Assembly (NCBI GenBank): GCA_942491655.1
Contig: CALOBL010000013.1
Span: 7,661 to 71,660, forward strand
Direction: 5' to 3'
From: Candidatus Cloacimonadaceae bacterium
GTDB lineage: Bacteria; Cloacimonadota; Cloacimonadia; Cloacimonadales; TCS61
DNA length: 64,000 bases
The stretch's first letter is position 1. Each line of letters starts with the position of its first letter. The notes under the pieces are model-generated. The model was given only the letters and a program-made list of their open reading frames with translations, did no database searches and had not been told where the DNA came from. This document shows, piece after piece, positions 25,715 through 45,851 of this stretch. Both the position numbers and the translations under genes were made by a program.

Positions 25715-28252
25715 ATGAAAGTTACTGATATTTTGTTTATTATTTTTTTATCATTTCTTATAATTAATCTTAATGCTGCAGAGAAAATGGTAGTACGTTT
25801 TAATGAACCCAACTTGCAGATCGTGCGGGAATTTCGTAATGATCAGCACGATGTGGCTTCTTACAGACCGGGAGAATATCTAGATATCGTAGTAACCGAA
25901 TCCTTTTATAATGAGCTCAAAGCACGCGGTCTGGATATTTCCATTACCCAGACGGAAGCGCAATTGAAAGAGAATCTTCAATCCACCCGTGAACTGGATG
26001 GTTATCAGACACATGCTGAGATCAATGGTCAGATGCTTTTGTATTCCTACCTTTATCCTGATATCTGTGAACTGCATGTACTGGGTGATACGTGGGGTAA
26101 AACCTATTATGAAGCAGGAAATGATAATTATTATGACTATGATCAGGAGATCTGGGGACTGAAATTATCTGATAATGTTTCCGAAGAAGAAGATGAACCA
26201 TGTGTTTATTATTTCGGAGCTCATCATGCTAGAGAACCCATCAGCGCAGAAATGACGATGACAATTCTGGATCATTTGCTTTCTAATTATGGTACAGATC
26301 CTGAGATAACCGAAAGCATAAATTCAACCCAGATCTGGTTCATTCCTGTTGTAAATCCCAACGGGCACAAGATCGTAACAGATGAACTGGATGTCTGGTG
26401 GAGAAAAAATATCCGGGACAATAACGAGAACGGCATGTTGGATGAAGAAGATTATGGTGACTATCTGGATGGAGTTGATCCCAACCGTAATTACGGATTT
26501 GAATGGGGTCTGGTTGGAGCTTCAGACCTTTGGGAAAGTCAAACCTATCACGGTCCTGGTCCAATTTCCGAACCGGAGAACCAGGTTGTGGCAGAGCTTA
26601 TCGGAGCTCATCATTTTATCGCCGGCATCAGCTATCATACTCATGGAGAATGGGTACTATTTCCTTATGGTTACAGCGACGGTGTAATGGCCCCGGATCA
26701 TGACGCTCTGCAGGAACTTGCCGTTGCCATGGCGGAACAGATACCTTCTCAGGATTATGGATATTATACACCAGCCGAAGCCTGGGGTTTGTATCCCTGT
26801 ATGGGAACCCTCGATGATTATGCCTATGGGGTCAGAGGTATTTTCTCTTATACCATTGAAATGGCAACTCAGTTCATTCCTCCAGCTGCTAATGTTCCCT
26901 TGATCTGTGAAGACAATCTTGACGCCGCATTAACTTTATTAGATAGAAAAAATCACTCCATTTTAACCGGGCACGTTACTGACAATGCAACTGATCTTCC
27001 TCTGGTAGCTGAGATATTTATCGAGGGCATTGATAACTCCGAAGAATTCCGTTACCCGTATCTTTCCAATGAACTCTATGGCTCTTATTACAGGCTTCTT
27101 ACCGATGGTTTTTACGATGTGACCATTTCTGCTTATGGTTATAGCTCACAAACTTTTGAAAATATTGAAATAACTTCTGCTGAGCAGACTATCCTGAACG
27201 CAGCATTAGATCCTGTACCCTATACTTTTCTTTCCGGAAATGTTTATAATGCTGATACAATTGAACCGGTGGAAAATTGCCGGATAGAAATCATTGATAC
27301 ACCATTGGAAGCCGTTTTCACTAATTCTGAAGGAGCATACGAATTCTCTGATGTTGCCGTTGATACTTACCAAGTTCTACTTACGGCAGCAGGTTTCTCT
27401 TCCCGTTTGGAAAGTATAACCCTGGAAGAAGAAGATAATGTTATAAATTTTGTGCTGGAAGTTTCGGAAGCTGAAAGTTTTGAACTGACTGAATTCGGCT
27501 ATGAATGGTCCTCAATCGGGGATGCCGATTGGTTCATAGATAACAATGAATCTTATGACGGATTCCATTCCGCTCGTTCCGGAATTATCGGCAGTATGGA
27601 ATCAACTTCTCTTCTCATAACACTTAATGTTATTGAAGAAGATGAAATAAGCTTTTATAAAAAAGTCTCCTGTGAAGATGATACCAGCAACGATAATTTC
27701 GACTACCTGCTCTTCCTGATAGATGATATTGAAATGGGACGTTGGGATGGTGAAATAGACTGGAGTCTTGAAACTTTCACAGTATCGGCAGGGCAGCATA
27801 CTTTTGAATGGCGTTACGAGAAGGATGGCTATGTATCTTCCGGTTCAGACTGTGCCTGGATCGATTACGTCGAGCTTCCTGAATATGATAATACCTCAAG
27901 CCAGGAAACCGAAGATTCACCTGTAAGCATGAAGTTGTTCGGTAATTACCCGAATCCATTTAATCCGGAAACAGTAATTTCCTTTAGTTTAAACACCCGT
28001 CTTCGTTCCAATGATGGAAACTACGCCGGGCAGGCTGAGAACACGGAGTTGTGTATTTATAATGCGAAAGGACAGAGAGTTAAATCTTTCTTTTTATCCT
28101 TCGACTCCGCTCAGGATGACCAGGAAAGCAGCAGAAAAGTTATCTGGGATGGAACTAATGATGCCGGCCAGCCAGTCTCTTCCGGGATTTATTTTTACAA
28201 ATTACAATCAGGAGATAAAAGCCTTACCCGAAAAATGGTATTAATGAAATAA
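25715..28252 (+). CDS. Secreted M14 zinc carboxypeptidase with CarboxypepD_reg-like domains, a jelly-roll-like module and T9SS CTD
   Basis: Signal peptide; zinc/catalytic motifs GAHHAREPIS, NPNGH, DPNRNY, SYHTHGE; C-terminal NYPNPFNPETVISFSL...GIYFYKL...RKMVLMK with repeat-derived loop inserts. Confidence 0.85.
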   Translation: MKVTDILFIIFLSFLIINLNAAEKMVVRFNEPNLQIVREFRNDQHDVASYRPGEYLDIVVTESFYNELKARGLDISITQTEAQLKENLQSTRELDGYQTHAEINGQMLLYSYLYPDICELHVLGDTWGKTYYEAGNDNYYDYDQEIWGLKLSDNVSEEEDEPCVYYFGAHHAREPISAEMTMTILDHLLSNYGTDPEITESINSTQIWFIPVVNPNGHKIVTDELDVWWRKNIRDNNENGMLDEEDYGDYLDGVDPNRNYGFEWGLVGASDLWESQTYHGPGPISEPENQVVAELIGAHHFIAGISYHTHGEWVLFPYGYSDGVMAPDHDALQELAVAMAEQIPSQDYGYYTPAEAWGLYPCMGTLDDYAYGVRGIFSYTIEMATQFIPPAANVPLICEDNLDAALTLLDRKNHSILTGHVTDNATDLPLVAEIFIEGIDNSEEFRYPYLSNELYGSYYRLLTDGFYDVTISAYGYSSQTFENIEITSAEQTILNAALDPVPYTFLSGNVYNADTIEPVENCRIEIIDTPLEAVFTNSEGAYEFSDVAVDTYQVLLTAAGFSSRLESITLEEEDNVINFVLEVSEAESFELTEFGYEWSSIGDADWFIDNNESYDGFHSARSGIIGSMESTSLLITLNVIEEDEISFYKKVSCEDDTSNDNFDYLLFLIDDIEMGRWDGEIDWSLETFTVSAGQHTFEWRYEKDGYVSSGSDCAWIDYVELPEYDNTSSQETEDSPVSMKLFGNYPNPFNPETVISFSLNTRLRSNDGNYAGQAENTELCIYNAKGQRVKSFFLSFDSAQDDQESSRKVIWDGTNDAGQPVSSGIYFYKLQSGDKSLTRKMVLMK

Positions 28253-28299
28253 ACCTGATAAAGTTGAATCGCTCGTAGTTTATAGACTGAGAGGTTTTT

Positions 28300-43828: not shown

Positions 43829-44311
43829 ATGAGGATAAGATATTTTCTTATACAGCTCATTTTTATGGGCTGTATTTATTTATACCCTGATGTTATAAGT
43901 CTGGAAAGCTATACTGGCAGTTTAGACAGTGGTGAATCTGATTCACTTACGGTCACGATCGATGCTTCCACACTTGAATTCGGTTTCTACAGCTACGAAA
44001 TAACTGTAACCGAAAATGACAGTATCTTCCACACCATTCCTGTTGAGATCGAGGTCTATCCGATATATCTTCCTGCTCCGGAAAATATTCTTATCTCTAT
44101 TGGGCAAAACAGCATATTGCTTCAGTGGGAAGCTGTTGCCGGAGCGCAGGGCTATAAGATCTACCGCTCCCTTCAACCTGATACAGCTTTCAGCGAAATT
44201 GGAACAACATCCCTCACTACTTTCACAGATTCCGAAGGTGACGATAGATCATTTTACCGGATCATCTCCTATTATACGGGATCTGCCATCAGGAGAGATT
44301 TGCATGAATAA
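43829..44311 (+). CDS. Small protein consisting of a terminal fragment of the shared pre-CTD module plus an FN3-like domain
   Basis: ISLESYTGSLDSGESDSLTVTIDASTLEFGFYSYEITV...IPVEIEV parallels WISLNSSSGSLNVGENDQITITFDANELGLGIHYCEI...IPVSLLV. LLQWEAVAGAQGYKIYRS is FN3-like. The RBS is weak and the stop overlaps the next start (ATGAATAA). Confidence 0.4.
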   Translation: MRIRYFLIQLIFMGCIYLYPDVISLESYTGSLDSGESDSLTVTIDASTLEFGFYSYEITVTENDSIFHTIPVEIEVYPIYLPAPENILISIGQNSILLQWEAVAGAQGYKIYRSLQPDTAFSEIGTTSLTTFTDSEGDDRSFYRIISYYTGSAIRRDLHE

Positions 44312-45851
44312 ATACCTGTTTCTGTTATTTATAATATTGTTTTCAACAGCAATAGTCTGTCAGCAGGAAGATCTATCCGATGATGTTTCTCATGCTTTAA
44401 CTCCTGAGGAACAGGAGTTGATGGACAGCATCATTCGGGATTTCGAAACAACAGAACCTCCTCCGGGTACGATCAGAAACATAGCCGAATTCGAACCGAT
44501 GCAGGGCGTTTTGATCCGGTACAGCTTCGGCATATCTTACGATCTGATCGCTGAACTTTCTGAAGATGACATAGTTTATACTCTGGTCGCAAACCAATCA
44601 CAGCAGAATACTGTAACAGCTCAATATAATAATAATGGAGTTAATTTATCTAATTGCCAGTTCATTCAGGCTGCTTCTGATTCTTACTGGACACGTGATT
44701 ACGGTCCCTGGTTTATATCTTATGGGAATAATGAGATCGGCATCGTAAATTTCCCCTATAACCGGCCCCGGCCCAACGATGATGATGTTCCGATTGAAGT
44801 GGGTGCATATCTTGGTGTCGATGTATTCGGAATGGACATCATACATACTGGAGGAAATTATATGACAACCGGATTGGGGATATCAGCCTCTACCGATCTG
44901 GTTCTTGATGAAAATCCTGATAAAACTGCAAACCAAATAGACAGCCTTATGCTGGCATATTTGAACATATCCCAGTACCATAAAATACCCGACCCAAATA
45001 ATACTTATATCGATCATATTGACTGCTGGAGTAAATTCCTGGATGTAGATAAGATCCTGATCAGATCAGTTCCAACATATCATTCTCAGTATGATGAAAT
45101 TGAAGCCGTTGTGGATTATTTCGAAACTCAGAACTCTCCCTACGGAACACCATACCAGATTTTCCGCGTTTATACTCCCCAAAATCAGCCTTACAAATTC
45201 ACTCATCCTCAATAAAAAGTTTATGTACCAGTCACAGGATCAACCTGGGATGATGATGCTCTGGCCTCATATGAGGAAGCCATGCCGGGTTATGAAATCC
45301 TGGGATTCACCGGAACCTGGGAATCTACGGACGCCCTTCACTGCAGGACCAAGGGTATAGCTGATCTGGGAATGCTTTATATTGATCATCTTCCCATATC
45401 AGGGGAAGTCGAGGCGGGTTTAACCTGCCCGGTTGAAGCATCAATAGTTCCTTACAGCGGTCAGTCTCTGATAAGTGACTCCTTAACAGTTCATTACCGG
45501 ATCAATGAAGGCAGCTGGTATTCTGTTCCACTTGTTCATCAAGTTGGAAGTAATTATAGCGCTTCCCTCCCGGCCGCTGCAGAGAACGATCAGATAGCTT
45601 ATTACATCACGGCAGCTGACAGCAGCGGTAGAAATTCCAGCCATCCTATCATCGGCAGGTCAGATCCGCATGTTTTTTCAGTAGGACCCAGTATGTCAAA
45701 CCTGCAGATCGAACCAGATTACATTGATTGCCAGTTGCCAGCGGATTCAACTGAAATGGCCTGGATAAAGCTGACCAACAACGGCTCTTCACGAATCCAA
45801 TATTCAATTGAAACAGATTCATTTAGAAGTACAGACGCAGGGAACAAATAG
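44304..45851 (+). pseudogene. Second PAD_porph-family deiminase paralogue, with two closely spaced frame disruptions and no C-terminal module or CTD
   Basis: Signal peptide MNKYLFLLFIILFSTAIVCQ at 44304; same motifs as 41299. The frame goes 0 to 1 at about 45194 and back to 0 at about 45219 (NQPY / TNSLILNKK / VYVPVTGSTWDDD), with a TAA in frame 0 at 45213. The ORF ends at 45851 (…FRSTDAGNK) with no CTD in any frame. Confidence 0.7.

Follow-up and report, generated by a model that had tools for sequence, protein, structure and literature searches.

Are the secreted deiminases and peptidases encoded side by side in an environmental anaerobe true counterparts of the Porphyromonas gingivalis enzymes that they resemble, and do they form a pathway? 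The question is raised by a run of nine genes on the + strand, at 25715-45851 of a 64-kb stretch of DNA (hereafter the window, to which all coordinates refer) from Candidatus Cloacimonadaceae bacterium (assembly GCA_942491655.1, contig CALOBL010000013.1). The original prediction, made from the sequence alone, placed there an M14 carboxypeptidase, an S8 subtilase, a second M14 enzyme, a TrmB-like regulator, a beta-helix protein, a C25 peptidase, a PAD_porph protein (PAD1), a small open reading frame (ORF) and a second PAD_porph protein (PAD2). We assigned gene families from an ORF listing and from Pfam and NCBIfam hidden Markov model (HMM) scans, and judged signal peptides by eye from the translations. 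The HMM scans confirmed the nine genes at the positions given, the C25 and PAD_porph assignments among them, and the guess that the host was a non-Bacteroidetes member of the Fibrobacteres-Chlorobi-Bacteroidetes (FCB) group agrees with its being Cloacimonadota-like. Judged by sequence, both PAD genes are orthologues of the P. gingivalis peptidylarginine deiminase (PPAD), an enzyme intensely studied as a proposed link between periodontitis and rheumatoid arthritis. Such genuine orthologues are, on the same footing, widespread outside Porphyromonas and partly linked to basic carboxypeptidases.

Identity of the two PAD genes

A Pfam match alone cannot settle whether PAD1 and PAD2 are of the PPAD type, since family PF04371 spans agmatine deiminase and PPAD activities alike. 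Comparison of PAD1 with all PDB sequences is far more discriminating: structures of P. gingivalis PPAD (6I0X, 4YT9, 4YTG, 5AK7, 5AK8) are matched over the catalytic and immunoglobulin superfamily (IgSF) domains with E-values of 8e-132 to 2e-126, against 5e-10 to 1e-4 for agmatine deiminases, which bears out the PPAD-type assignment made originally. By BLAST, PAD1 is 49% and PAD2 46% identical to P. gingivalis PPAD over ~416 residues, and the alignment of PAD1 with PPAD extends through chain residue 417 and so takes in the IgSF domain.

The functional residues of PPAD are W127, D130, R152, R154, T180, G182, Y233, H236, D238, C239, N297 and C351 (Goulas et al., PMC4487231). Among them C351, H236 and N297 form the catalytic triad, D130 and D238 bind the guanidinium group, and R152, R154 and Y233 clamp the C-terminal carboxylate (PMC4487231). 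When they are mapped by pairwise alignment (adding 43 to the chain index), PAD1 proves to retain all twelve, and its motifs DSYWTRDY, YIDHIDCWGK, PYTNSLILN and TDALHCRT match PPAD. Across an alignment of 20 diverse homologues W127, D130, R152, R154, G182, Y233, H236, C239, N297 and C351 are invariant and D238 nearly so; R116, R118 and Y197, in query numbering, are invariant in that alignment. The carboxylate-clamp motifs YNRPRPND and NTYIDH occur in both window proteins. Since the clamp is conserved, the same exo specificity, for C-terminal arginine, is predicted for PAD1 and PAD2. PAD2 retains the catalytic and binding motifs of PPAD except that of Asn297, which is scrambled by a lesion at 45186-45215: the translation there reads PYKFTHPQ*KVYVPV where PYTNSLILNKKVYVPV is expected.

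That these are ordinary agmatine deiminases, serving polyamine or agmatine catabolism, is very improbable. The idea draws on the breadth of PF04371 and on the name 'agmatine deiminase family protein' that homologues bear in the sources, yet the NCBIfam agmatine deiminase models TIGR03380 and NF010070 reach only 57.6 and 59.3 bits where their cut-offs lie at 381.8 and 483, and the gulf in PDB E-values, the carboxylate clamp and the IgSF domain all speak against it. Agmatine deiminases are cytoplasmic, unlike the PAD proteins with their signal peptides and, in PAD1, a type IX secretion system (T9SS) C-terminal domain (CTD).

Set beside PPAD itself (PG1424; PDB 4YT9, 4YTB, 5AK7, 6I0X), the catalytic-plus-IgSF architecture is the same, and PAD1 shares the T9SS CTD as well. 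The host differs, an oral Porphyromonas there and a Cloacimonadota-like environmental anaerobe here, and PAD1 adds a mid module of three Ig-like domains ahead of the CTD. Here, moreover, two tandem paralogues, the second without a CTD, flank a conserved gene for a putative small lipoprotein, and the activity is one predicted from sequence.

The segment DPNNTYIDH of PAD1 (~42005-42031) is an invariant motif of the family and equals the 'super-active' T2 allele of P. gingivalis PPAD, not the reference allele. PPAD-T2 is a clinical variant with the substitutions G231N/E232T/N235D (PMC11926895); as DPNNTYIDH is invariant in the environmental family, T2 matches the family-typical state.

Extent of the PPAD family

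PPAD has been described as 'limited to a single species' (PMC5445135), and papers from 2015 to 2026 treat it as found nowhere but in P. gingivalis or in three species of Porphyromonas (PMC5445135, PMC11121387, PMC13539308, PMC10394638), the only reported homologues being those of P. gulae and P. loveana (PMC11756583, PMC10394638). A protein database search nevertheless retrieved more than 5,000 proteins of the family at E <= 1e-20. The best of these homologues are 55-79% identical and typically of ~800 residues with a Por_Secre_tail domain. Those that are named come from metagenome-assembled genomes (MAGs) of Cloacimonadota (older name Cloacimonetes), Bacteroidales or Fermentibacteria, and are labelled 'agmatine deiminase family protein', an annotation that conceals a distinct secreted subfamily.

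A scan of one genome per GTDB species gave at least 570 PPAD-encoding stretches, from Cloacimonadota, Bacteroidales, Lentimicrobiaceae, Marinimicrobia, Chlorobiota and others. Eighty of these loci (species representatives) were retained and fetched with the PPAD alignment, with flanks of up to 10 kb, and the catalytic and IgSF parts are both present in all 80. Identity between P. gingivalis PPAD and environmental proteins of the family is 45-54%. Some homologues (P0013, P0056) carry a dockerin domain in place of the T9SS CTD. A literature search of incomplete coverage found no paper describing this environmental family, which offers abundant natural PPAD variants for structure-function work, the T2-like family consensus being an example.

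In one Cloacimonadota MAG (L067, 5360-12547) a single frame of 2,396 residues, directly downstream of an M14b homologue, embeds the PPAD catalytic domain in a giant multidomain cargo protein. In another Cloacimonadota locus (L165, 1-4898) a giant cohesin- and PKD-rich protein is encoded ~5 kb from two PPAD genes.

Organization of the locus

The genes of the run and their immediate neighbours are as follows; M14a and M14b denote the two carboxypeptidases.

24620..24696, - strand: tRNA-Arg(TCG), for context only
24997..25512, + strand: small TPR protein, conserved left neighbour of M14a (Pfam TPR matches)
25715..28252, + strand: M14a, with signal peptide, M14 domain, CarboxypepD_reg and T9SS type-A CTD; frame intact (Pfam Peptidase_M14, 1e-54)
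28300..31501 (ORF stops at 31407), + strand: S8 subtilase with beta-helix (PMP repeats, choice-of-anchor Q) and damaged CTD (Pfam Peptidase_S8, 4e-24)
31532..34216, + strand: M14b, predicted M14B enzyme with CarboxypepD_reg, Ig-like mid module and CTD (Pfam Peptidase_M14, 1e-62)
34788-35075 + 35044-35601, + strand: TrmB-like regulator, in two frames (Pfam TrmB helix-turn-helix, 2.5e-15, and C-terminal part)
35598-36923 + 36862-37602, + strand: beta-helix (choice-of-anchor Q) protein with two CarboxypepD_reg domains and CTD, in two frames
37803..41273, + strand: C25 cysteine peptidase with propeptide, catalytic domain, Ig-like mid module and CTD; frame intact (Peptidase_C25, 8.5e-57)
41299..43805 (41429-43003 + 42975-43805), + strand: PAD1, with signal peptide, catalytic domain, IgSF domain, Ig-like mid module and CTD (PAD_porph, 7.5e-28)
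43829..44311, + strand: small ORF of 160 residues, Ig-like and fn3-like
44304..45851 (44016-45215 + 45282-45851 as ORFs), + strand: PAD2, with its own signal peptide, catalytic and IgSF domains and no CTD (PAD_porph, 8e-16)
46089..47576, + strand: fn3-containing T9SS cargo protein with CTD, conserved right neighbour of PAD2 (Pfam and TIGR04183)

Several limits differ from those of the bare ORFs. The true start of PAD1 is the ATG at 41299, which brings in its signal peptide; PAD2 is a single reading frame interrupted by an in-frame TAA; M14b extends past an in-frame TGA to 34216; and the tail of the S8 CTD reaches 31501 in a different frame. The run itself exceeds 25715-45851, with the TPR gene before it and the fn3 gene after it. 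Gaps of 24-48 nt, or overlaps, join M14a to S8, the TrmB-like gene to the beta-helix gene, and C25, PAD1, the small ORF and PAD2 to one another. Other intervals lie before M14b (~30 nt after the repaired end of S8), the TrmB-like gene (~570 nt), C25 (200 nt) and the fn3 gene (237 nt). All NCBIfam TrmB-type models stay below their cut-offs for the TrmB-like regulator.

Carboxypeptidases and the C25 peptidase

The best PDB match of M14a is carboxypeptidase T (2.5e-37), a broad-specificity enzyme. M14b matches domain II of duck carboxypeptidase D (1H8L) at 1.9e-54 and also aligns with carboxypeptidases M and N. It retains MHGDE, NFHGG, NYPWD (containing the Asp192 equivalent), SRQDF (the Gln) and ITMEIS, and a CarboxypepD_reg (transthyretin-like) domain follows the catalytic domain (6e-13). 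By these features M14b is an M14B (CPD/CPM/CPN-type) enzyme with the Asp and Gln residues of Arg/Lys specificity, of the class of P. gingivalis CPG70, as had been proposed. CPG70 (PG0232) is Arg/Lys-specific T9SS cargo (PMC5445135). M14b has in common with it and with the metazoan carboxypeptidases D/M/N/E the M14B domain, CarboxypepD_reg and the equivalents of Asp192 and Gln, and it has a T9SS CTD; the likeness rests on these shared class features, not on the CPG70 sequence. CPG70 carries PKD domains, in whose stead M14b has the Ig-like mid module, and the CTD of M14b contains an in-frame stop in this assembly.

The C25 protein scores 193.5 bits with PF01364 (cut-off 23) and 23.6 with Propeptide_C25, PF08126 (cut-off 22), and is distant from gingipain RgpB (1.3e-10). 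Its catalytic residues His451 and Cys487, both invariant, align with H211 and C244 of RgpB, and the lid residue Trp284 is retained. RgpB D163 falls opposite the Asp of a conserved G-G-D-Y-K-D-E motif in both hhalign and MAFFT alignments, which are of low confidence there. Arg specificity is plausible for this C25 subfamily as judged from these residues. With the gingipains RgpB and Kgp (MEROPS C25) it shares Peptidase_C25, Propeptide_C25 and a T9SS CTD; the relationship is nevertheless distant, no haemagglutinin/adhesin (cleaved-adhesin) domains were found in the window protein, and the subfamily to which it belongs is a very large environmental one, mostly without a link to PPAD. Identification as the PorU sortase was rejected, NF033707 scoring 67 bits against a cut-off of 420 with a match limited to the CTD-like end.

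T9SS cargo signals

Type-A CTDs, with the motif YPNPFNP, end M14a, S8, M14b, the beta-helix protein, C25 and PAD1, as well as the fn3 protein at 46089-47576. The CTD models TIGR04183/PF18962 exceed their cut-offs in M14a (TIGR04183 29.9 against 23), the beta-helix protein, C25, PAD1 (TIGR04183 25.3 against 23; Pfam 38.1 against 27) and the fn3 protein. S8 remains below threshold (18.6 against 27) and the M14b ORF gives no match, because both CTDs are interrupted. The CTD models and window scan found no CTD on PAD2 or the small ORF. The earlier description of the genes as T9SS cargo thus holds for six of the run, with interrupted signals in S8 and M14b, and it was right that PAD2 lacks a CTD, a trait shared by its orthologue in locus L001.

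A DNA motif, GTCAYCCTGAG-N5-TCGAAGG, recurs within the CTD variable loop of three cargo genes (28098-28122, 31288-31311 and 41117-41137), located between ...KGQKVK and ...WNGTD. It translates as HPEFIEG or HTEFIEV, or as FDSAQDD in the other orientation. The reading frame is kept through it in M14a and C25, and in S8 it lies out of frame inside a loop of 109 nt. A database CTD (P0124) shows SPFDFAQDD at the equivalent position. The CTD variable loop looks like a hotspot for repeat-derived insertion within the secretion signal. A hairpin element in the extra DNA of the S8 loop was considered and rejected, since the folding is no better than that of shuffled sequence (z=-1.25).

The small ORF, PAD2 and a shared module

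The protein of the small ORF is conserved in four genomes and its N-terminus ends in a lipobox-like L-[ML]-[GS]-C (LIFMGC in the window). The gene always lies between two PPAD genes and in L001 is fused to the N-terminus of PAD2; this position and this fusion suggest, from gene arrangement, that the small protein partners or anchors PAD2. The PAD2 of L082, by comparison with those of the window and L001, has a CTD. In the window PAD2, a Cys precedes acidic residues (AIVC-QQEDLSDD), a possible lipoprotein signal; the orthologues differ there, and we make no claim for it.

M14b, C25 and PAD1 have in common a module of ~260 residues, 39-44% identical (33137-33955, 40185-40982 and 42716-43490), which no Pfam family covers. 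Its structural model (mean predicted local distance difference test score 82) consists of three beta-sandwiches with only generic Ig-like/ASH structural matches. A word-indexed search with this module gave two proteins only, so that the count used here comes from an exhaustive HMMER search: 5,433 representative proteins contain it, and among the 36 best full-length matches are 20 C25, two S8, one M14 and one M6 peptidase. A specific targeting or assembly domain tying M14b, C25 and PAD1 together was therefore rejected in favour of generic Ig-like sandwiches found in thousands of cargo proteins. The module is a common stalk of peptidase cargo, and as evidence for coupling of the three enzymes it is weak.

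Gene neighbourhoods in relatives

To the 80 PPAD loci were added contigs of the closest database homologues, and all were searched with catalytic-domain queries from the window. A reciprocal set of 80 metagenome loci was anchored on the C25 subfamily by an alignment query; an earlier scan with a single C25 sequence had found none.

Two conserved blocks emerge, the first in the closest relatives. In L081 a C25 gene (67% identical) is followed by PAD1 (75%, intact, 818 residues), the small ORF (160 residues, 43%) and PAD2 (63%), while L082 has a C25-like gene (54%), PAD1, the small ORF, PAD2 and the fn3 gene (61%), and L001 has PAD1, PAD2 with the fused small ORF, the fn3 gene and orf436. The block PPAD1-small ORF-PPAD2-fn3 is kept in four genomes, once with a gene fusion, the fn3 homologues downstream of PAD2 in L001 and L082 being 52-61% identical. 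The other block lies at the left of the run and recurs in Cloacimonadota that are less closely related: TPR-M14a-M14b-PAD in L058, M14a-M14b-orf-PAD in L002, TPR-M14a-giant fn3 protein-PAD in L062 and M14b-PAD in L067. TPR homologues 49-51% identical stand directly upstream of M14a in L058 and L062, a conserved junction that disfavours placing there the edge of a mobile genomic island integrated at the adjacent tRNA-Arg. In L007, L011 and L013, which make up one lineage, and in a Bacteroidales MAG (L049), a C25 gene of the same strand directly precedes PPAD; adjacent same-strand pairs occur in about three lineages. In L035, L052 and L163 a C25 gene is near PPAD on the opposite strand.

Catalytic-domain and TrmB queries detected no counterpart of the S8, TrmB-like or beta-helix gene in the 160 loci scanned. 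The genes are thus not neighbours in this one assembly only, which the original prediction had named as a refutation: the C25-PAD1-small ORF-PAD2 order recurs in L081 and L082, and the TPR-M14a(-M14b)-PAD order in L058, L002 and L062. The nine-gene unit as a whole is not conserved, S8, TrmB and the beta-helix gene not being shared members. In our reading of these gene orders, the stable core would be TPR-M14a-M14b-PPAD1-small lipoprotein-PPAD2-fn3 protein. C25, S8, the TrmB-like regulator and the beta-helix protein would then be lineage-specific additions, adjacency of C25 and PPAD being recurrent and confined to certain lineages.

Reading-frame lesions

The variable loop of the S8 CTD measures 109 nt (31273-31381) against 39-51 nt in sister CTDs and is out of frame, the CTD tail following at 31382-31501. 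M14b has an in-frame TGA within its CTD (34067-34069). The TrmB-like gene is frameshifted between ~34996 and 35075, near A4/A6 runs, the beta-helix gene near 36870-36890, and PAD1 near 41430 and 42993. PAD2 combines the in-frame TAA (45213-45215) with a 24-nt out-of-register segment over the Asn297 motif (45186-45215). TGA recoding was set aside for the M14b stop, since this is the only such codon and PAD2 is interrupted by TAA.

The only lesion seen outside the run affects another cargo gene, at 4460-8067, which encodes two Laminin_G_3 domains, a C-type lectin domain and a CTD, and appears to be broken into three frames (4460-6907, 6847-7188 and 7201-8067). The ~23 kb of non-cargo genes have full-length Pfam coverage and no lesion was seen in them. 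Were ~12 lesions spread evenly over ~55 kb, ~5 would be expected in these 23 kb, and a Poisson estimate gives P ~0.006. Either the locus is poorly assembled here or it is decaying; likewise, decay or variability of the cargo genes may be real, or else differences among strains have spoiled the consensus there.

Pathway and alternatives

We think it slightly more likely than not, on gene content, that this chromosomal neighbourhood equips a Cloacimonadota-like anaerobe with surface or secreted T9SS enzymes for external protein breakdown, with an emphasis on C-terminal basic residues. A pathway of endopeptidases, PPADs and M14 carboxypeptidases is plausible within it. The C25 and S8 endopeptidases would cut substrate proteins; peptides ending in Arg would be converted by the PPADs to C-terminal citrulline with release of ammonia, or be trimmed by M14b; M14a would take off further C-terminal residues; and the freed amino acids, possibly with citrulline, would be imported and fermented. 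Cooperation of this kind among gingipains, PPAD and CPG70 is described for P. gingivalis (PMC5445135). Cloacimonadota have been described as degraders of proteins and amino acids, and dockerin-bearing S8 and C25 peptidases reported in one of their genera, Ca. Stygibacter (PMC8542988), support a degradative role together with the dockerin-bearing PPAD homologues. The cellulosome-like peptidase/glycosidase complexes proposed for Ca. Stygibacter (PMC8542988) resemble the present case in phylum and in the secreted S8 and C25 peptidases, seen as a protein-degrading apparatus; they differ in using dockerins where the window enzymes have T9SS CTDs, and the window encodes no cohesin protein.

More tentatively, and with less than even confidence, PPAD may be not a Porphyromonas invention but part of an old and extensive family of secreted deiminases acting on C-terminal arginine, which anaerobes of the FCB group share (Cloacimonadota, Bacteroidales and Marinimicrobia among them). 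The Cloacimonadota cassette of PPAD1, small lipoprotein and CTD-less PPAD2, linked to Arg/Lys carboxypeptidases, would then be an extracellular 'peptidyl-arginine deiminase pathway' turning protein-bound arginine into ammonia and citrulline for energy, and the virulence enzyme a repurposed nutrient harvester. The environmental orthologues, abundant and repeatedly linked to genes for Arg/Lys carboxypeptidases and C25 peptidases, would recast the original role of PPAD as protein and arginine scavenging with ammonia production, and they suggest that peptide citrullination may be a common step of anaerobic protein degradation in digesters, sediments and lakes.

A number of observations weigh against a working, dedicated pathway. 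Enzymatic activity has been reported for no PPAD homologue from outside Porphyromonas in the literature searched. At least eight reading-frame lesions cross six genes of the run, and counts in a promoter/terminator scan are at chance level in the locus. The window C25 reads MHFKEE, with His at the position of RgpB Asp163 where all six orthologues compared have Asp, in an alignment of low confidence. The window has ten type-A CTDs on its + strand, of which three fall at 7.8-14.6 kb, so that cargo genes are dense throughout and the predicted island is not special in having them. Clustering of PPAD with C25 or M14 genes does not hold in general: where 5 kb or more of upstream DNA was available (47 PPAD loci), nine loci have any C25 gene and four an M14 gene; neither is near PPAD in the Cloacimonadota loci L165 and L166; and a PPAD within 10 kb is absent from all 80 metagenome loci anchored on C25. 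A second C25 gene occurs in nine of those 80, so cargo genes cluster anyway.

These last figures are the substance of a different explanation, that there is no functional module at all and the run is one of many T9SS cargo clusters built by local duplication and domain shuffling, its likeness to the gingipain/PPAD/CPG70 set being coincidental. The frequency of second C25 genes is comparable to that of C25 in PPAD loci (13 of 80), the three-Ig mid module indicates shuffling among cargo genes, and S8, TrmB and the beta-helix gene do not recur as neighbours. We nonetheless regard this as doubtful, for the M14a-M14b-PPAD order and strand are kept where the PPADs are only 51-62% identical (L002, L058, L062, L067), a divergence across which gene order is not usually preserved unless selected for; the recurrent C25-PPAD pairs, one in a Bacteroidales MAG, and the block of four genes around the small ORF also tell against it. 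About as unlikely is the possibility that the locus is a decaying pseudogene set in this genome, its frameshifts and stops being real mutations. The lesions are indeed of mixed types (TGA, TAA with a 24-nt segment, a CTD loop ~60-70 nt longer, several indels of 1-2 nt), were seen only in the run and one other cargo gene, and have intact orthologues in L081, L082 and L001. Most of the indels, however, fall at short homopolymers or dinucleotide runs (A4/A6, GG, TATAT, CACA/A5), which indicates long-read consensus error, a pattern to which the two stops and the insertion are exceptions; the contig, at 275.8 kb, is of a size to be expected from a long-read MAG, a consensus can also be corrupted where variable cargo genes differ between strains, and the three largest genes (M14a, C25 and the catalytic part of S8) are intact.

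The enzymes might, finally, mature the cell's own surface proteins and not serve nutrient harvest. In P. gingivalis, CPG70 removes Arg/Lys from the C-termini of gingipain domains and the targets of PPAD include endogenous proteins, which it citrullinates (PMC5445135); the present enzymes are themselves T9SS cargo and probably surface-anchored, and the small lipoprotein and PAD2, having no CTD, may be located in the periplasm or membrane. Sequence does not separate self-processing from nutrition, but the dockerin-bearing homologues indicate substrate-degrading complexes and the phylum is described as degrading proteins and amino acids, and we consider self-processing improbable.

Other features of the window

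An intergenic element of ~80 nt occurs in three copies, 90-96% identical, at 378-457 (+), 3925-3994 (+) and 21355-21434 (inverted). It folds as a long hairpin (z=-4.9, one copy). Rfam matches only the tRNA and gives none for this element, which could be a repeat resembling repetitive extragenic palindromes or miniature inverted-repeat transposable elements (REP/MITE-like) or a small RNA. At tRNA-Arg(TCG), the last 14 nt of the gene and ~215 nt downstream are tandemly duplicated (24141-24371 and 24404-24634, 91% identical), each copy containing the 36-nt palindrome GAAGTTTCTAAAGGGAATCACCCATTTAGAAACTTC; the duplication may be an old integration scar.

Cargo proteins encoded at 8295-12128 have Peptidase_S74 (the endosialidase intramolecular chaperone), six repeats of GNVGIGT type and a T9SS CTD, a tail-fibre-like architecture using T9SS, in a reading frame probably split at ~10605-10624. 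At 17816-21157 a TPR protein of 1,113 residues carries the PIN domain of the 'TPR-GreAB-C-PIN' system (PF20698).

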